NCBI GenBank assembly: GCA_903834195.1
Contig: CAILIB010000015.1
Location: 53,146-117,145 of the forward strand
Direction: 5' to 3'
DNA length: 64,000 nt
From: an uncultured Candidatus Berkelbacteria bacterium
GTDB lineage: Bacteria > Patescibacteriota > UBA1384 > CAILIB01
This document shows positions 3 through 52,873 of the stretch, in pieces. A program made the position numbers and the translations under genes. Within the stretch, counting starts at the first letter, position 1. Every line of letters starts with the position of its first letter. The notes beneath the pieces are model-generated. The model did no database searches, was not told the DNA's origin, and saw only the letters and a list, made by a program, of their open reading frames with translations.

Positions 3-770
3 ACTGTCGCCGACTTTCACAAGTATCGTGAACAGTTCTACAAAGGTGGAAACTGTACAATCGCAATTGCTGGGGCAATTACAGTAAAAGAAGCTCAAGA
101 TTTCGCAGAAAAATACTTCAAGGACCTGCCATCTGGAGATCATGTGAAGGCTGAACCAATGCGGTACCAGGAAGAAAAGCGTGTCCTGCTTGAATCAAAG
201 AAATCCGAGCAGTCTCACTTGATGTTGGCAGTTCGTGCCTACCCTGATTCGCACCCAAAAGAGTATCAGCTCCGTCTCCTCAGTACTATTCTCGGAGGCA
301 ATATGAGTTCGCGCTTGTTCATTTCAGTTCGCGAAAAGCAGGGGCTCTGTTACTACGTTCGTTGTCACCCAGATACCTATAGTGACGTTGGTATGCTTGT
401 TGCGTCTGCAGGTATTGATACGACTCGTGTACATCAGGCGATTACTGCCATCATAAAGGAGTTTACAATTCTTCGTGATGAAACTGTTTCAAATGAAGAG
501 CTTGAGCGCGCTAAACAGTATTTGATTGGTAAAGCACACCTCAATATGGAAGACTCTGAACAGGTTGCAGAATACTACGGAATTCAGCAGTTGCTTGAGA
601 AGAAGCAAGAATCGCTTGAAGAAACAATTAAGAAAATCCGAGCGGTTACACCTGAAGAAGTTCGAGCGGTTGCGCAAGAACTCTTTACCGATAAAGAACT
701 TCGATTAGCTGTTATTGGCCCACACGAAGATCCATCGGAGCTCGATGCATTACTCGTTTTTCCTAACTAA
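3..770 (+). CDS. M16-family (insulinase/PqqL-like) peptidase, C-terminal part; 5' end outside window
   Basis: Frame is open from the window edge to TAA 768-770. Translation (...FYKGGNCTIAIAGAI...LSTILGGNMSSRLFISVREKQGLCYYV...) resembles the C-terminal half of M16 peptidases. The ORF-track start at 144 is an internal GTG. Confidence 0.7.
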   Translation, partial: TVADFHKYREQFYKGGNCTIAIAGAITVKEAQDFAEKYFKDLPSGDHVKAEPMRYQEEKRVLLESKKSEQSHLMLAVRAYPDSHPKEYQLRLLSTILGGNMSSRLFISVREKQGLCYYVRCHPDTYSDVGMLVASAGIDTTRVHQAITAIIKEFTILRDETVSNEELERAKQYLIGKAHLNMEDSEQVAEYYGIQQLLEKKQESLEETIKKIRAVTPEEVRAVAQELFTDKELRLAVIGPHEDPSELDALLVFPN

Positions 771-775
771 CGAAT

Positions 776-1402
776 ATGTCCTCAAAGTACAAAACCCACC
801 ACCTCCCAACCGAGAAAACCTTCATCATGGTCAAGCCAGACGGCGTTATGCGCGGTCTTATTGGTGAGGTAATTAAGCGTCTCGAACAGCGCGGTCTCAA
901 AGTTGTGGCAATGAAGATGATGCATGCCACGCGTGATCATATCGATGGTTTCTACCCTAAAGAACAAGCTTGGATAGATCGGCTTGGACAAAAAGGGCTT
1001 AAGACATTTGCCGAGTATGACATCGACCCAAAGAAGCACATGGGAACAGATAATCAGTCTGAAATTGGTGCAGTGGTTCGTGCTGGTCTTATAGATTTCC
1101 TGAGCATGGCACCTGTTGTACCAATGGTTGTTGAAGGAATTCACGCCATTTCAGTAGTGCGCAAAATTGTTGGATCCACGTTGCCTGTATTTGCAGAGCC
1201 TGGAACAATCCGGGGTGATTACTCAATTGACGCTCCAACTGCAGCTAATCTAGAAGGACGCAGCATCTATAACATCGTCCATGCCTCAGAAACGGCTGAA
1301 GAAGCTGCGCACGAAATAGACTATTGGTTCAAGAAAAATGAACTCTTCGATTATGATCGTGCCGACCACGTTGTAATGTTTGGCGACAAACGAAACCAGT
1401 AG
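776..1402 (+). CDS. ndk: nucleoside diphosphate kinase (long form)
   Basis: TFIMVKPDGV...GTIRGDYS...NIVHASE motifs. 208 aa, with about 35 extra residues inserted relative to the usual 140-150 aa enzyme. Confidence 0.9.
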   Translation: MSSKYKTHHLPTEKTFIMVKPDGVMRGLIGEVIKRLEQRGLKVVAMKMMHATRDHIDGFYPKEQAWIDRLGQKGLKTFAEYDIDPKKHMGTDNQSEIGAVVRAGLIDFLSMAPVVPMVVEGIHAISVVRKIVGSTLPVFAEPGTIRGDYSIDAPTAANLEGRSIYNIVHASETAEEAAHEIDYWFKKNELFDYDRADHVVMFGDKRNQ

Positions 1403-1414
1403 AACAACGTTCCC

Positions 1415-2533
1415 ATGGAGACATACGGGCTGGGATTACTCGATCGATACCCTGATGCCTGGAAGGTGTTCCTTATTTTGTTCCTCTTAACGAACATTTT
1501 TACTGGATTGTTTTATGTTCTTGCCAAGAAAAGGGGGTGGATGCCCGCGATTCGCTCTCGAGATGTGCACACGACACGCAAGCCTCGTGTGGGAGGTCTT
1601 GGTATGTGGGCGGCTGCGTTAATTGGCCTTGTTTCAGTTGCTCTATATCGGAGCGATCTTCTCGATTTCACTGCTGCAGGGGCGGTAAATTCAAGTCACA
1701 TTTTGTTTGGCATTATTGCCGGTATGGCGGTAGTACTCGGTTTTGGCATACTCGATGATCTCGTAGGATTACCGCCGTGGGGGCAACTTGTAGGTCAGTT
1801 TTTAGCTGCAACTGCACTTATCTTGGCAGGTCTTCAGGTATCGTATCTCCGCCTGCCGTTTGATCATGTCATCTGGATGGATCGGCTTATCTGGCACATT
1901 GGGCCGTATAGCATCTTGCCACTTTCTTCGTTATTCATCTATTTCTGGGTGATTACGATGATTAACGTAATGAACTTCTTTGATGGTCTCGATGGTCTGG
2001 CGGGAAGTGTGGCCATGACTGCCTCTGTGGTTATGTTGCTCGTAAGTCTTCGCCTCGGATTCATTGGTGCCGCCACACTCTGTTTGATAATATTTGGCAT
2101 TACAGCAGGCTTTTTACCCTGGAACTGGCACCCGTCGAAGTTGTTTATGGGAACAGTTGGTTCGCAGCTGCTTGGGTTTATGCTTGGTGTGGTAGCGATT
2201 ATCTCTGGGGCTAAAGTTGCTACCGCAGTTCTTGTTTTAGGTATTCCAGTTTTTGATGCAGTCATTGTTATTATTCGCCGCCTCATTGCGCATGAACGTC
2301 CTTGGCAGGCAGACCAGCGCCACCTGCATCACCGCCTCTTAAAAATTGGCCTCTCCACACCTGCAGTGGTTATTATTACGAACGTTGTTGCGGTGGTATT
2401 CGGGATATTAGGCCTCAGTAGTCAGCAGAGTAGTCAGAAGGGATTACTCACCATACTCCTGCTCCTTTGTATGATTGGGTTCATCATTATTACCTATGTG
2501 CTTGAACGGAAGGCTACAGAAGAGGTAGACTGA
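1415..2533 (+). CDS. polyprenyl-phosphate sugar-phosphate transferase, MraY/WecA (GT4) family
   Basis: 372-aa polytopic membrane protein with the NVMNFFDGLDGLAG motif. Confidence 0.8.
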   Translation: METYGLGLLDRYPDAWKVFLILFLLTNIFTGLFYVLAKKRGWMPAIRSRDVHTTRKPRVGGLGMWAAALIGLVSVALYRSDLLDFTAAGAVNSSHILFGIIAGMAVVLGFGILDDLVGLPPWGQLVGQFLAATALILAGLQVSYLRLPFDHVIWMDRLIWHIGPYSILPLSSLFIYFWVITMINVMNFFDGLDGLAGSVAMTASVVMLLVSLRLGFIGAATLCLIIFGITAGFLPWNWHPSKLFMGTVGSQLLGFMLGVVAIISGAKVATAVLVLGIPVFDAVIVIIRRLIAHERPWQADQRHLHHRLLKIGLSTPAVVIITNVVAVVFGILGLSSQQSSQKGLLTILLLLCMIGFIIITYVLERKATEEVD

Positions 2534-2555
2534 AGCTGAACGCATAACATCGACT

Positions 2556-2987
2556 ATGGAACCTCAAACAACATCACAATCTGCACCTAGTACTCCAATC
2601 ACTATTCTTCTGGTTGAGGATGAGCAGACGCTTCAGGAGCTCTATTTTGAACGGTTCACAACTGACGGCATTACAGTACTTCAGGCATTTGATGGTATGC
2701 AGGCACTTGAAATGGTTGAAGGTCACCCAGAAATTCAACTAGTCCTTCTCGATTTGATGTTACCAAAGCTTTCGGGGTACGACGTCCTGAATCACATTAA
2801 ACACAATCCAGTTTCTTCCCATATTCCGGTAATTATTGTCTCTGCTCTGGCAGATATTGATGATCAGGCACGTGGTCTTCAAATGGGCGCAACAGATTAT
2901 ATTACCAAAGGGGATATGCTCCCATCAGCGGTTATTGAAAAGATAAAATCCTATGTCGTATCAGTTCCACGGCCAGCGGCCGCATGA
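2556..2987 (+). CDS. stand-alone response regulator receiver protein (CheY-like)
   Basis: ILLVEDE...LDLMLPKLSGYDVL receiver motifs. 143 aa, no output domain. Confidence 0.8.
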   Translation: MEPQTTSQSAPSTPITILLVEDEQTLQELYFERFTTDGITVLQAFDGMQALEMVEGHPEIQLVLLDLMLPKLSGYDVLNHIKHNPVSSHIPVIIVSALADIDDQARGLQMGATDYITKGDMLPSAVIEKIKSYVVSVPRPAAA

Positions 2988-3444
2988 GGAAGTCCTGCTG
3001 ATCGTTCGTAGGCACCCTTTCGTTCTCCTTAAACCTTTTATTATTTCAGCACTTTTCGTGCTGTTACCTTTTGCGATTCTTATCTTTTTCCCGGTAGGAT
3101 ACGTCCTTAGTATTTCGGTCATTATGTGTCTCATCCTTGCTATCGTAGTGAGTTTCACTGCCTGGCATCAGTGGAGAAGTACCTTATTACTGCTCACAAA
3201 CGAACGGGTGGTGTTTTTGGAACAAAAAAGTATCCTTAAGCGGGAATTTGTTGAGTGTGGCCTAGGGACGATTCAGCAGGTGTCTCATACGGTGCAGGGA
3301 TTACTCGGGACAACAATGGGCTATGGCACAATTACAATTGCTACTGGGGGAATCTCCGGCATCATCAAAATTCCCGATATCCCAGATCCGTACGAGATTC
3401 AGCAAGAAATACAGCGGGCTGCTTCGGGAGATACTGAAAGCTAG
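2953..3444 (+). CDS. membrane protein with bacterial PH (YdbT/bPH_2-like) domain
   Basis: Two TM helices followed by a YdbT-like C-terminal domain. Overlaps the upstream gene by 35 nt. Confidence 0.55.
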   Translation: MSYQFHGQRPHEEVLLIVRRHPFVLLKPFIISALFVLLPFAILIFFPVGYVLSISVIMCLILAIVVSFTAWHQWRSTLLLLTNERVVFLEQKSILKREFVECGLGTIQQVSHTVQGLLGTTMGYGTITIATGGISGIIKIPDIPDPYEIQQEIQRAASGDTES

Positions 3445-3446
3445 AT

Positions 3447-6400
3447 CTATTTAAAGGTGATGCGCTCAGGTCCGATGAGGGTCGCCAGTTTGCTATACAG
3501 CGAATCAGACGCTTCGACGCGTTGGGTGATTTTCATTTCTTGAGCGCCTTCAAGAGCTGGTAACAGGAGAGTTACTGGAATAGTGCCCTTGTGTTTCTCA
3601 AGTGCCTGTTTGATATTCTGTAACAAATTTCGATCACCATCTTCAGGGATTTTCAACCAAAGTGAGGTGGCTTTGCGTTCGTTTTCAGGAAGTTTGGCAT
3701 CACTGATTACGGTGCAATTATCAGCAAGTACTTTGGTCTCGAGGGTTTCACCGTCCATGCGACTTTCTTTGCGACTTAATTTACCTTCAATACAGATGGC
3801 GCGTCCTTCCAAGCACACATCTTCCTTCGTGGCCCAGGTTTTTGGGAAGAAAATGGCTTCACCAACGCCGGTTTCATCTTCAATCTGAACGAACGCCATA
3901 CTCTTAGCGTCTTTTTTGGTAAGGATTTTGCGAACTGAAAGAATAATACCGCAGACTTTGACTGTTTCGCCGTCTTCAACTGTGCTAAGCTCACCGATGC
4001 GATTGCGGTTATCTGGGAGATTGTGAAGGTATGGTGAAATCGGGTGAGCGCTAACGTAAATGCCGAGCAATTCACGTTCCCAGGTAAGACGTTGTTTCTC
4101 ACTTGCAGGTTCAGCAGGGGTAAGGTGAAGCGAAAAGCTCACACTTTCAGCGGCGTCACCAAACAAATCAATCTGAGTAGAATTACGACGCTTATTGATT
4201 TGAGATGAGAACGAAAGCATGGCATCTAAGTTTTGAATCAGCTCATTTCGCTCACCAAAACGATCGAGTGCACCGGCCATGGCTAAGTTCTCCAACACTT
4301 TTTTGTTCACAATGTGAGCGCAACGACGGAGGAAATCAGCTAAATCTAGGTATGGGCCGTTCTTGCGTTCTTCAACAATTGCACTGGTCGAGTGCACTCC
4401 AACGTTTTTAATAGCACCCATGCCAAAACGAACGTAGGCGTCGAAGGCTTTATCGGCAGGTTTTTCCTTAGTTTCTGGGTTGTAGAAAATGGTACCAAAC
4501 TCAACAAACGATTCATTTATATCTGGAGGCAATACCTCGATCCCCATTTCTTTGCACTCAGCAATTTCAATACCAACGCGGTCAAGGTTTTGAATATCTG
4601 AGGTAAGCAAAGATGACATGAACTCAACTGGATAGTTGGCTTTCAGGTAGGCAGTTTGATAGGCGATCATTGCGTAGGAAACAGCGTGGGCGCGGTTGAA
4701 TCCGTACCGAGCAAATGGTTCAACGAAGTCCCAAACCTGTTCTGCAGTCTTTTGATCAATTTTATTAACTGTAACTGCACCGCTAATAAATTTATCCCGC
4801 TGTTCATCAAGCAAAGATTTAATCTTCTTACCCACTGCCTTACGTAGAACATCGGCCTGTCCGTAGGTGAATCCGGCAAACTTGCGTGCCGTTTCAAGTA
4901 CCTGGTCTTGCGTAACGATAACACCGTACGACATGTTCAAAATTGGTTCTAGAATCGGGTGGAGGTAGGTAACCTTTTTGCGACCATGTTTGGCGTCGAT
5001 GAAATCTGGGATGGCGTCCATTGGTCCTGGTCGATACAAAGCCACCATGGCAACAATGTCTTCAAACTGAGATGGTTTGAGTTCTTTTAAGTAGCGCTTC
5101 ATACCTGATGATTCAAGCTGGAATACGCCAGTGGTTTCGGCGCGGGAAAGGAGGGCAAAGGCTGGCTGGTCATCTACCGGAATTTTGGTCAGATTAATAC
5201 TGACTCCGCGCGTCTTGCGGATTACCCGCAGTGCCTGCTGAAGGATGTTCAGGTTGGCCAGTCCTAAGAAGTCCATTTTCAAGAGGCCGATGTGCTCAAC
5301 GTCATTCATCGCATACTGGGTCACGATAATGCGATCGTCCTTGGCAGCACGCTGAATCGGCAGATACTTGGTCAGAACTTCTTTGGAAATTACTACGCCA
5401 GCAGCGTGGATTGAGGTGTGCCGTGCGCACCCTTCTAATCTGGCAGCGATATCAATCAGTTTGTGGATTTGCTCGTTATTTTGGTAGAGTTCCTGAATCT
5501 CAGGGATCTTTTCGAGTGCTTCATTGAGCGACATGCCTTGTGGTCCAGAAGGGATGAGTTTGGCGATCTGGTCACACTCGGTATATGAAACACCAAGGGC
5601 ACGGCCAACGTCGCGAATTGCAGCCCGAGACGCCATGGTTCCAAAGGTAACAATCTGAGCCACGTGGTCCCAACCATAACGCTGGCGGGTGTATTCAATA
5701 ACATCGTCGCGCCGGGCATCCTCAATGTCAGTATCAATATCTGGCATATTGATACGTTCTGGGTTGAGGAAACGCTCAAAGATGAGGTTGTGGACTAGCG
5801 GGTCAATGCTTGAAATACCAATTAGGTAACTGACCAGACATCCTCCGGCTGAACCACGTAAGCCAACCATGATGTTGTTTTCGGTGGCCCAGTTCATGAA
5901 ATCTTGTACGATCAAGAAATATGACTCAAAGCCCATTTTCTCGATAACCGAAAGCTCATACTCAAAACGGGCGATAACCCGTTCGTTGAGGGGAATTTTA
6001 GGGTCGTTCAGTGGAGATTCAAGCATCTCGCCTTCAACACGGTCAGTACGAGGTGTGTAATCGAATCCGTACCTACTTTTAATACCTTTGGAGCTAAGGT
6101 CTCGCAGATAAGTACGGTCGGTCATGCCTTTGGCAATTGCCTCTTCTGGCAAAGGGAATACCGGCAAAATATTCACACCCATCGGAATAGTCACATTGCA
6201 GCGTTCGGCAATTTTGACAGTGTTCTCGTAGGCTTCCGGAACTTCTTTGAACCACTCGATCATATCCTCGCACGAGGTGAGCGACAGGTTGTAGTCCAGC
6301 ATGTTCAACCGGTTTGGATCGTTGACGGTTTTGCCAGATGAAACGCAAACCATTACATCTTGAGCCTCAGCATCATCTGGTTCGATGTAGTGTACGTCAT

Positions 6401-9678: not shown

Positions 9679-10257
9679 ATGCTTAAAACAGATGTAGCCA
9701 ACCTGCTGCTTGCCAAGTACGGCAAGAAGAATGCTCCCGCCGTTAAACCTGGCGATACTGTTCGTGTTCACCAGAAAATTCGTGAAGGTGAAAAAGAACG
9801 TGTTCAGATTTTTGAAGGCCTCGTAATTGCTGTAAAGCACGGCGTTGGTCTTGATGGTACTTTCACTGTACGCAAAATCGCTGTTGGCGGTATTGGTGTA
9901 GAGCGTACCTACCCACTTCACTCACCAAACATTGTTAAGGTTGAGCGTGTTAAAACTGCTGAAGTTTCTCGCGCCAAGCTTTACTACATGCGTGATCGTA
10001 AGGGAAAGACTGCTCGCTTTAAGCAAGAAGTTCAAAACCCAATGACCTGGGATGAATCAGCTGTTGTAGCTGAAGCTGCTGATATGCCAGTTGCTGAGCC
10101 TGATACTATGCAAGATATCCTTGAAGAAGTTGTAGAAGTTACAACTGTTCAAGAAGAAGTGCTTGCAGATGTTGCTGAAGGCGAAACAATGCCTGAAGCT
10201 GCTGTAAACCCTGAGCAAGTAGTTGCTGAGGAAAAGTCAGAAGAAGCCACCGAATAA
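9679..10257 (+). CDS. rplS: 50S ribosomal protein L19 with long acidic C-terminal extension
   Basis: KPGDTVRVHQKIREGEKERVQIFEGLVIA L19 core (about 115 aa), followed by about 75 aa rich in Glu/Val/Ala. Confidence 0.9.
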   Translation: MLKTDVANLLLAKYGKKNAPAVKPGDTVRVHQKIREGEKERVQIFEGLVIAVKHGVGLDGTFTVRKIAVGGIGVERTYPLHSPNIVKVERVKTAEVSRAKLYYMRDRKGKTARFKQEVQNPMTWDESAVVAEAADMPVAEPDTMQDILEEVVEVTTVQEEVLADVAEGETMPEAAVNPEQVVAEEKSEEATE

Positions 10258-51287: not shown

Positions 51288-52091
51288 TTACGACCAACTC
51301 TGGATAATTGCTGAATGCTCATCCTGAGATCGTGCCCACATGTATTCGAAAATATTGCGAAATGTTTCGGCAATTGATTCATTTTCTATCACTGTAATGA
51401 TCTGAGGATTACGCGTGGCGGCAAGTGCAATACAGTTATTCCAAATAAGGATCTCGGCAGGGTTATTAAGGAACTGAGGGTCTACGAGGCGGCGTTCCAC
51501 CAGAAGTTCAGGGTTATCGTTTAGGATATGCTTTTTGGTGTTAGGAAGTTCACGTCCAATAATACGATTTTTAATATGAAGGCGCGCACGTTCAAGTCGC
51601 ATTGTGCGAATGTAGGCACGCGTTTCCTCGTCATCTTGCATACTTCCTTTTGATGACACAATCGTAAGTTGCTCCTTAGTTTTCGAGCGCAAAATCTCAC
51701 CATACACAGTCTTCACTCCTTCCAAACCTTCATATATGCGAACTGACGGTGCGTTCGTTGTGGTGTTATATGTGGATACCAAATGGGGAAGAAGAGTTTC
51801 TAGAAGCGATGCATTTTCTTGAACTTGTACTTGTTGCTCGCGAATTAAGTCACGAAATTTTGCTGGGTCAGTAACTCGGTAAAGTGCTTTTGGCTTTATT
51901 TGTGATTGCTCAACAATTCCACGAGAAATAAGTGCGGTTAAGATATTATACGCACTTCCTTTTTTAGTGTTTGTCTTTTTGCTGATTTCAGCGACAGATG
52001 ACTCACCATCTTCGAGGAGGGTGGAGTATGTGATTGCTTCTTTATCAGAAAGGCCAAAACGTTGTAAGTCAGTGTTTGAGATTGATTCCAT
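51288..52091 (-). CDS. TrmB-like regulator, paralog 7
   Basis: LQRFGLSDKEAITYSTLLEDGESSVAEISKKTNTKKGSAYNILTALISRGIV; C-terminal FEYMWARSQD. Confidence 0.75.
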   Translation of the reverse strand: MESISNTDLQRFGLSDKEAITYSTLLEDGESSVAEISKKTNTKKGSAYNILTALISRGIVEQSQIKPKALYRVTDPAKFRDLIREQQVQVQENASLLETLLPHLVSTYNTTTNAPSVRIYEGLEGVKTVYGEILRSKTKEQLTIVSSKGSMQDDEETRAYIRTMRLERARLHIKNRIIGRELPNTKKHILNDNPELLVERRLVDPQFLNNPAEILIWNNCIALAATRNPQIITVIENESIAETFRNIFEYMWARSQDEHSAIIQSWS

Positions 52092-52197: not shown

Positions 52198-52226
52198 TTG
52201 ACATAATATAAATGTTTTGATATAGT
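52198..52226 (+). promoter_or_regulatory. promoter upstream of the tmRNA-like element
   Basis: TTGACA (52198-52203), 17-nt spacer, TATAGT (52221-52226). Confidence 0.65.
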
Positions 52227-52317
52227 GCTACCAGCAACGGTGAGGGAAACCTCTAGCGACAGTTCCACCTTATTAAATACCAGGTACGGCATCGCTAAAA
52301 TCTCTCGCCGAGCGCAT

Positions 52318-52453
52318 GGGGACGAACGGGTTCGACAGATGATGTTTGGGTTAGTGTGGGGTGGTGCCCGGTCTGGGTAAATGCCTATACAACAACCAGG
52401 CTGCTAACCGCCGCGTCGTTTGGAAGCGAGTTCAACTCTCGCCGTCTCCACCA
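52318..52453 (+). ncRNA. ssrA: miniature tmRNA-like RNA (complete tRNA-Ala-like domain, only 136 nt)
   Basis: GGGGACG/CGTCTCC acceptor with G3:U70, GGGTTCGAC 5' element, T arm GCGAG-TTCAACT-CTCGC, discriminator A plus CCA. The possible tag region ends ...CAGGCTGCT. There is no space for pseudoknots PK2-PK4. Confidence 0.6.
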
Positions 52454-52506: not shown

Positions 52507-52830
52507 ATGTCCAAAACATATCGAATCATTGTGTCAAATGGCTGGGTAGTGATCGAGTTTCAAAAGTACGGTGTCTATCGGATTACTGATAACAGTATGA
52601 AGGTAAACATCGACTATGAGACACCCGATCTGGGGTATGGCAAATGGGATAATGAGGTTGTGAATGAAGACGATGATCTCGACTTTTTACACTATCTCGG
52701 AGTTTCACGACGCCTTCGATGGAAGGAGGTTATAATGACCGACAGAACCATCTATGCCCCCAGCCTTGAACGGTTACAAGAAGCTCTTCGACATGTCGTC
52801 TTTAAGGCATACAACGAAGACGATCTCTAA
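52507..52830 (+). CDS. hypothetical protein (107 aa)
   Basis: ORF with weak SD, followed by a terminator. No family recognised. Confidence 0.4.
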   Translation: MSKTYRIIVSNGWVVIEFQKYGVYRITDNSMKVNIDYETPDLGYGKWDNEVVNEDDDLDFLHYLGVSRRLRWKEVIMTDRTIYAPSLERLQEALRHVVFKAYNEDDL

Positions 52831-52843
52831 TCGTTCACTGCCA

Positions 52844-52873
52844 CCGCGGGGAGTTTCTCTCTGCGGTATTTTC
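52844..52873 (+). terminator. rho-independent terminator
   Basis: CCGCGGGGAG-TTT-CTCTCTGCGG (10 bp, two G:U pairs) followed by TATTTT. Confidence 0.7.

Follow-up and report, generated by a model that had tools for sequence, protein, structure and literature searches.

Transfer-messenger RNA (tmRNA), the product of ssrA, is usually described as a molecule of about 360 nucleotides (nt), in which pseudoknots encircle the small ribosomal subunit's head and the reading frame of a peptide tag ends in a stop codon. Here we analyze a far shorter gene, at positions 52318-52453 of a 64,000-nt stretch of DNA from an uncultured Candidatus Berkelbacteria bacterium (assembly GCA_903834195.1, contig CAILIB010000015.1, positions 53,146 to 117,145, forward strand); this whole stretch is called the window below, and positions given without a locus name are counted from its first letter. 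An initial annotation, made from the sequence alone, had recognized tmRNA-like ends at this site and offered three explanations: a naturally minimized tmRNA, a decayed ssrA remnant left by internal deletion or island integration, or a tRNA-like element co-opted as the 5' part of the ‘cargo’ transcript of a neighboring TrmB-family regulator. We favor the first, with a probability of roughly 0.62: the gene would be a naturally minimized ssrA that acts through its tRNA-like domain (TLD), its tag function being vestigial or lost.

Partial precedent for such a gene is found in the 2025 tmRNA database (Nawrocki, Petrov and Williams), the one relevant paper found in literature searches on miniature tmRNAs in the candidate phyla radiation (CPR), Patescibacteria or Saccharibacteria. 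Its category ‘Standard, no CDS’ (coding sequence) consists of Nasuia and one Patescibacteria species, 9FT-COMBO-53-11 sp001772805, which "may lack" a tag frame (PMC11915505). Among Patescibacteria, the same database lists ‘standard’ tmRNA in 5252 of 6765 genomes and the ‘no CDS’ form in 3, and tmRNAs with a tag of two amino acids (Ala-Ala) are also on record there; candidates came mainly from ARAGORN and BLASTN hits, and those with ‘large internal deletions’ were rejected (PMC11915505). Outside bacterial chromosomes, CDS-less tmRNAs have been retained together with SmpB in organelles, including jakobid and oomycete mitochondria (RF02544) and plastids with forms of ∼65 bp, and mycobacteriophage DS6A carries a short, CDS-less TLD form reported to inhibit the host tmRNA (PMC11915505). 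Work on E. coli and M. tuberculosis tmRNA reports that AUAG or AUAA is strongly preferred upstream of the resume codon; in engineered molecules, a hairpin or single-stranded RNA can take the place of pseudoknot 1 (PK1) with tagging kept, and in E. coli translating just the resume codon suffices for a two-residue tag and ribosome recycling (PMC4236655).

The window gene shares with standard one-piece tmRNA (RF00023, for example that of E. coli) a TLD with G3:U70, D-loop analogue, T arm and ACCA end, a helix 2, an A-rich context followed by a GCN resume codon, a promoter of its own, and a match to the family model above its cut-off. It differs from the standard molecule of ∼360 nt in its length of ∼136 nt, in a plain hairpin in place of PK1, in the absence of PK2-PK4 and helix 5, in a resume frame that lacks a stop codon, and in escaping detection by ARAGORN. 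The mature RNA and its parts are as follows.

52318-52453, + strand: miniature tmRNA in its mature form (ssrA homolog), 136 nt long with the encoded CCA (from Rfam, the family alignment and covariation).
52318-52335, + strand: 5' half of the TLD, acceptor strand GGGGACG (with G3 of G3:U70) and D-loop analogue GAACGGGUUCGA.
52336-52355, + strand: 5' strands of helix 2, P2a at 52336-52345 and P2b at 52349-52355 (minimum free energy fold, covariation).
52358-52369, + strand: hairpin H1, GGG-GUGGUG-CCC, at the position of pseudoknot 1 (fold, covariation).
52370-52402, + strand: hairpin H2, stem GGUCUGG/CCAGGCU, with a 19-nt loop at 52377-52395, standing in for the mRNA-like region and pseudoknots 2-4 (fold, covariation).
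52403-52422, + strand: 3' strands of helix 2, with UAA 52405-52407 within the P2b strand GCUAACC.
52426-52453, + strand: 3' half of the TLD, T arm GCGAG-UUCAACU-CUCGC, then CGUCUCC, discriminator A and CCA.

Membership in the tmRNA family is clear from the model score and the TLD. RF00023 matches 52318-52453 from model position 1 to 374 with 66.3 bits (E 1.3e-23; gathering score 47 bits), and in this alignment 45 nt stand in for 278 internal model positions. The acceptor stem pairs GGGGACG (52318-52324) with CGTCTCC (52443-52449) over 7 bp, G3:U70 included; discriminator A stands next, at 52450, and then the encoded CCA (52451-52453). The T arm at 52426-52442 is GCGAG-TTCAACT-CTCGC, its T loop being 7 nt long, and GGGTTCGAC, the D-loop analogue at 52328-52336, follows the family pattern GG.UUCGAC. 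These elements, and the start of helix 2 (CAGATGA, 52336-52342, with TCGTTTG, 52416-52422), lie exactly where the initial annotation had placed them. The gene runs colinearly from the 5' to the 3' half of the TLD, unlike the permuted two-piece forms (RF01849-51, RF04321, RF02544), whose genes have the acceptor piece ahead of the coding piece and of which RF04321 reaches no more than 16.3 bits on the 3' half of the gene. ARAGORN, run on the window, makes no tmRNA call at 52318-52453. Two classical features are absent, the pseudoknots and a closed tag frame. The gene resembles the ‘no CDS’ and Ala-Ala tmRNAs on record, which are likewise one-piece and bacterial, with a complete TLD, and appear to lack a tag frame or encode only Ala-Ala. 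Like the organellar forms, it has been reduced to a tRNA-like core that has no reading frame for a tag; those are mostly permuted two-piece molecules with little beyond the TLD, whereas the window gene is one-piece and bacterial, and has a long helix 2 and the vestige of a resume codon.

The gene is not a singleton. Scans of species-representative genomes, metagenomes and viral contigs for the two tmRNA ends lying 65-95 nt apart yielded 16 genome, 77 metagenome and 2 viral loci (numbered with the prefix L), representing 81 distinct sequences of 114-140 nt. The RF00023 cut-off is passed by 15 of the 16 genome copies, L007 failing it, and the relatives score 58-75 bits; on all loci together ARAGORN gives no correct call, and its few spurious ones have wrong 5' ends and odd tags. 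The homologous Patescibacteria family, of 132-140 nt and with copies from Saccharimonadales, Berkelbacteria and unclassified Patescibacteria, can be aligned with the window gene over the entire molecule. Similarity to the closest genome relative, L010, runs from G1 to CCA and is sharply bounded at both ends. Elsewhere in the family, neighboring genes encode UvrA, UvrC, a release factor and an H+-PPase. About 60 nt downstream of the L010 gene, at ∼1520-1545, lies a degenerate copy of its own 3' end (TTCCGGTCGCTTCCACCA vs. TTCCGGTCGCCTCCACCA), which resembles a scar from an old integration event at the mini-tmRNA gene.

The scans also recovered loci of other kinds. L053 (6088-6219) is an Escherichia-like ssrA with its middle missing, adjoining smpB, and L008 (2507-2649), from a Burkholderiaceae metagenome-assembled genome (MAG), scores 118 bits, resembles the standard betaproteobacterial gene and is probably a deletion variant like L053; both are singletons otherwise like standard ssrA, and probably represent true deletions or assembly artefacts. 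A separate family of 118-124-nt mini-tmRNAs occurs in Anaerolineae (L003, L006, L012; metagenome loci L024, L035, L089-L092), with a single interior hairpin, loop GGGAAAAGGCCC and compensation in 16 of 33 pairs; in this form CCA is incompletely encoded and the tag frames are inconsistent. On one phage-like contig, with PHROG matches of unknown function, a mini-tmRNA (L020, 1880-2016, - strand) stands amid 9 tRNA genes (131-3475) and has a GUGGUA hairpin as in the Patescibacteria family; on another, L067 (9831-9955, - strand) is accompanied by 6 tRNA genes, a DnaC-like loader and a sigma factor. Two more mini copies lie on IMG/VR contigs (L018, L019).

From 5' to 3', the molecule consists of the acceptor stem, P2a, an internal loop, P2b, H1, H2, the return strands of helix 2 and the T arm; the partners of P2a and P2b are 52413-52422 and 52403-52409, respectively. 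That the interior would leave no room for pseudoknots, as the initial annotation had argued from length, is borne out by the model alignment and by the fold, which places two hairpins where PK1-PK4 would stand. Support for this fold comes from covariation and not from thermodynamics, the single-sequence folding z-score of -1.39 being unremarkable. Across 17 family sequences, 90.0% of cells form standard pairs, whereas sliding the partners by 1-3 columns leaves 43-52%; compensatory (both-side) changes occur in 26 of 35 pairs, with some in each of the six helices, and the covariation score of 0.616 compares with at most 0.165 in controls and is reached by none of 500 shuffles. The acceptor pairs (helix 1) are invariant or compensated, with 97.5% of cells paired and G3:U70 present in 17/17 members, and the T arm (helix 6) shows compensation in 4 of 5 pairs, with 98.8% of cells paired. 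P2a and P2b (helices 2 and 3) show both-side changes in 14 of their 15 pairs. H1 (helix 4), with the family consensus GNGC-GUGGUA-GCNC, has a near-invariant loop and compensation in all 3 pairs; a PK1-like pseudoknot joining the loops of H1 and H2 finds no covariation support, the H1 loop being invariant, with nothing to covary. The loop of H2 (helix 5), 19-21 nt across the family with the pattern G(R)AAAUGCCUAMAACAAARAC, is the vestige of the mRNA-like region. Taken as comparative evidence, this pattern of change indicates a selected, structured RNA and not debris.

In E. coli tmRNA, U88 and C89 lie between the upstream tetramer and the resume codon. The H2 loop of the window gene holds a canonical resume context, GUAAAU followed by GCC, at 52377-52385, and relatives read AUAAAU-GCN or GAAAAU-GCC at this place, which fits the rule of AUAA/AUAG, 2 nt and GCN (PMC4236655). 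H1 lies 12-13 nt upstream of GCC, where PK1 would be expected; given the conserved upstream context and this position of H1, we identify GCC 52383-52385, from its sequence setting, as the homolog of the resume codon. The frame that it opens reads AYTTTRLLTAASFGSEFNSRRLH and reaches the RNA's 3' end with no stop, so that the absence of a clean tag stop, remarked on by the initial annotation, stands. The same frame lacks a stop in 12 of 18 family members. A single codon followed by a stop (GCC-UAA or GUC-UAA) is found in 4 (L002, L004, L016, L077), of which L002, L004 and L016 read GCC-UAA, an Ala-Ala tag, and frames of 6 residues are found in the other 2. In the window's lineage, ribosomes that routinely resumed on GCC would read past the last codon of the tmRNA, only to stall once more; the lack of selection for a stop argues that the GCC frame goes unread, or is read only trivially, and the tag function appears vestigial or lost. 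The two other frames quoted earlier for this region are present as described: GGT AAA TGC ... (GKCLYNNQAA, 52376-52405), and ATG CCT ATA CAA CAA CCA GGC TGC TAA (52381-52407, PIQQPGC*), which is +1 relative to GCC and is the only frame closed by UAA 52405-52407. The engineered E. coli tmRNAs in which PK1 is a hairpin, or a stop directly follows the resume codon, have an architecture that is natural here and in L002-type relatives; those variants were made in the laboratory and still have the remaining parts of the molecule and a stop codon.

Upstream of the mature RNA, and around it, the window carries the following features.

52198-52226, + strand: sigma-70-like promoter TTGACA-17-TATAGT with an upstream TG, 11/12 matches, ∼90 nt before the mature 5' end.
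52227-52317, + strand: conserved 5' leader of the precursor, ∼90 nt, conserved in the window, L097 and L100.
51288-52091, - strand: TrmB-family regulator gene, divergent and syntenic with the mini-tmRNA (Pfam TrmB, 3.8e-16).
52507-52830, + strand: open reading frame (ORF) of 107 amino acids (aa) with no Pfam or PHROG match, followed by a terminator-like site at 52843-52867.

The near-consensus promoter, already pointed out in the initial annotation, has counterparts at two orthologous loci, where TTGACA-17-TACACT (+TG) can be aligned with it base for base; TTGACA-17-TAYAST with TG is common to all three. At one of these loci (L097/L098/L099, on a 457-kb scaffold) the RNA has the 136-nt form and scores 67.8 bits. 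At the other (L100, 2704-2817, - strand) it is a 114-nt form, of 68.6 bits, which keeps the TLD and P2a; H1, H2 and the AAAUGCC motif are all missing from it, and a plain branched hairpin makes up the interior. The orthologous regulators are P0124 (47% identity to the window TrmB) and P0123 (49%), and at each of them the mini-tmRNA gene lies 230-270 nt away in divergent orientation. The leader, at 9731-9861 (- strand) of L097 and 2818-2909 (- strand) of L100, is about as conserved as the mature RNA among these three sequences, which are too few to prove structure, and is absent upstream of other family members. It is built, in this order, of the blocks GCUNCYNGCAACGGNGAG, GYGACAGUUYC and ACGGCAUCGC, which two hairpins of variable sequence separate from one another, and of a small hairpin that precedes the cleavage site; GCAACGG, GACAGUU and ACGGCAUCGC are invariant. 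Rfam at E≤10 gives no credible match on the leader. The leader may act as an RNA element in processing or regulation, or as an operator of the divergent TrmB. It was also considered as a hidden tag-coding piece, where the frames proved to be broken by indels, and as a partner of the H2 loop, where the candidate pairing lacks covariation. The 9-mer CTCTCGCCG, which the initial annotation had seen both in the leader and in the T arm/acceptor, does occur at 52302-52310 and 52436-52444, its only two sites in the window (expected number of copies, 0.22); the repeat is probably a coincidence, since at the homologous leader positions neither L097 nor L100 carries a copy of its own T arm.

Close homologs of the window TrmB are few. 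In two Berkelbacteria lineages, at loci L015/L042/L056 and L009, the mini-tmRNA likewise has TrmB genes as neighbors; this wider link could be chance, as TrmB paralogs are very common in the genome, with an unusually high density of at least 8 in the window (at 21.5, 27.7, 30.2, 36.0, 38.1, 47.0, 51.3 and 58.4 kb; 23-28% mutual identity). Against the Berkelbacteria neighbor, the window TrmB is the best match by a marginal difference (82.8 vs. 79.7 bits), too small to single it out as the specific ortholog. Three further paralogs lie within 10 kb past the end of the window, and many of these genes adjoin small genes without a family match. Among the divergent loci, synteny beyond TrmB is confined to a 38-aa C-terminal match, with no conserved gene order. 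The ORF at 52507-52830 may be co-transcribed with the mini-tmRNA; the genes downstream of the RNA differ between the window, L097/L098 and L100, so that the conserved unit is the RNA itself.

Other genes of the window encode DnaE, GluRS (its nearest named relatives coming from Patescibacteria), a family-4 glycosyltransferase and a DsbD-thioredoxin protein, and the 129-kb source contig also carries SecA, SerRS, NDK, L19 and L27. The same locus sequence has been assembled independently in several samples. Among the neighbors, Pfam and PHROG searches found no integrase, and no phage family apart from a phage-family match to an AdoMet decarboxylase; the window holds no second copy of the 3' end of the gene at up to 3 mismatches, nor an att-type repeat, and blastn of the locus against phage genomes gave no match. 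On these sequence grounds we regard the mini-tmRNA gene as chromosomal, syntenic and vertically inherited.

A minimized ssrA of this kind would be transcribed from its own conserved sigma-70-type promoter together with the ∼90-nt leader. By analogy with the established tmRNA pathway, RNase P would then cut at G1, the G3:U70 pair would direct charging with alanine, and SmpB and EF-Tu would bind; where a ribosome has stalled on a broken mRNA, the charged RNA would enter its empty A site and accept the nascent chain. The open GCC frame, and the loss of the whole loop in L100, suggest that the chain is probably extended by Ala or by very few residues. Release without a stop codon might, speculatively, depend on a factor of the ArfB type, or on drop-off and the subsequent action of peptidyl-tRNA hydrolase. 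In the relatives with GCC-UAA, a two-residue Ala-Ala tag would be added.

Several observations weigh against this reading. The +1 frame is closed, at equal length, in both the window (PIQQPGC*) and L097 (ATKRPNC*), and in L097 the stop is UGA instead of UAA, kept through a compensated change in the paired P2b strand. The RNA might then still be a tagging tmRNA, with resumption one base downstream, on CCU, or on the preceding AUG, and a tag (A)PIQQPGC ending at UAA 52405-52407 in P2b; both sequences read UAA-AUG-(7 codons)-stop, and L010 ends in ...KPSC* at the same structural position. This frame is, however, +1 relative to the conserved resume context; the L010 loop is one nucleotide longer, so that the same UAA closes a different frame relative to GCC and AUG; not one of the frames contains a stop in L014, L009, L021 and others, and the loop itself is missing from L100. 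The shared ‘P-x-C-stop’ follows from invariant stem nucleotides (CC of H2, GCUNA of P2b), and the residues show no pattern like known degrons. We consider continued tagging in this frame unlikely. Also to be set against a minimized ssrA is the finding of no smpB in the window, in the gene tables of ∼18 kb beyond its ends, or in the related family loci; tblastn with SmpB of E. coli and T. thermophilus (approximate queries) against the window and all loci matched only L053, the Escherichia-like positive control. About 82 kb of the genome was examined, and a second, standard ssrA may lie outside it. Expression, RNase P processing and alanylation are predictions with indirect support from the conserved promoter and the identity elements, SmpB binding is likewise a prediction, and ribosome release without a stop codon is something we purely infer. 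The mini form is, moreover, in a minority among Patescibacteria, ∼78% of which have ‘standard’ tmRNA (PMC11915505), and phage-like contigs with tRNA arrays carry structurally similar mini forms.

These last points lead to the alternative of an accessory tmRNA-like RNA, working beside a standard ssrA as a decoy or modulator of trans-translation in the manner of the DS6A short form, and possibly controlled by TrmB. The limited part of the genome examined and the prevalence of standard tmRNA in Patescibacteria are compatible with it, as are the inhibition of endogenous tmRNA by the TLD-only DS6A form in E. coli (PMC11915505), the related mini forms in the tRNA arrays of L020 and L067, and the promoter, leader and linked regulator, which suggest regulated expression. 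The DS6A form is nevertheless phage-borne, whereas the window gene appears to be vertically inherited in a chromosomal housekeeping context, where it remains syntenic though the TrmB proteins are only 47-49% identical, and no mobile-element genes or att repeats were found at the locus. Two ssrA-type genes would also be unusual in a genome of ∼1 Mb, the database giving 0.78 tmRNA per Patescibacteria genome, and the CDS-less form of the 2025 survey is the only tmRNA candidate of the one Patescibacteria species reported there; an accessory role at this locus seems to us unlikely, though a serious rival. The TrmB ‘cargo’ idea of the initial annotation, in the form of a tRNA-like processing or stability element 5' of the mRNA of the downstream ORF, under the divergent TrmB paralog, survives only in part: the TrmB linkage is conserved, and no terminator lies between CCA and the ORF at 52507-52830, the only terminator-like site following the ORF. 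It loses the cargo itself, as the downstream genes are unrelated at the orthologous loci; conservation halts exactly at CCA, and the full tmRNA identity set (G3:U70, D-analogue, helix 2 and resume context) would be needless for a processing signal, which makes this reading very improbable. Least credible of all, and largely contradicted, is a non-functional remnant of an internally deleted standard ssrA, or an assembly artefact. Such cases do turn up in the same scans (L053 and L008), and the 2025 survey rejected ‘large internal deletions’ in some MAGs (PMC11915505), but here the independent assemblies agree, the interior helices covary across the family with compensation in all six, and the orthologous copies share promoter and leader, with conservation ending sharply at the mature ends. 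Nor is there a 3' repeat, integrase or phage gene to speak for island integration. The conserved family, its strong covariation and its syntenic chromosomal locus all favor the naturally minimized tmRNA.

A bolder form of the minimized-ssrA reading goes further, and we put it forward tentatively, as possible but doubtful. The lineage's sole ssrA would be a 114-136-nt RNA made of the TLD, helix 2 and a vestigial loop, without pseudoknot ring or tag function; it would transfer alanine and then rely on stop-codon-independent release, under the control of a structured leader and a dedicated divergent TrmB, and the Anaerolineae and phage-like mini forms would mark a recurrent route of reduction missed by ARAGORN.

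The ‘no CDS’ Patescibacteria entry of the 2025 database is confined to one sentence, without structure, length, family breadth or context, and that paper describes neither the lineage of the window nor its TrmB synteny, leader or 114-nt form (PMC11915505). L015, a Berkelbacteria MAG that comes out of the same project, is a candidate for this entry. What is new beyond this precedent is the breadth of the family and a structure backed by covariation, a resume frame that is recognizable but open, the 114-nt ortholog, the conserved promoter, leader and TrmB synteny, and the parallel Anaerolineae family of 118-124 nt. The mini form may be under-recorded, since the survey leaned on ARAGORN and BLASTN and rejected large deletions, and ARAGORN calls no copy correctly; genomes with this form may have been scored as lacking ssrA or as having a defective gene. 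The TrmB linkage and the leader hint, from their conservation, at regulated expression of a rescue RNA, which to our knowledge has no counterpart for tmRNA. A conserved form of 114-136 nt, without a pseudoknot and usually without a closed tag frame, would mark the smallest RNA retained by selection for bacterial ribosome rescue; it would offer structural biologists a small natural substrate, and would raise the question of how ribosomes are released without a tag stop codon.

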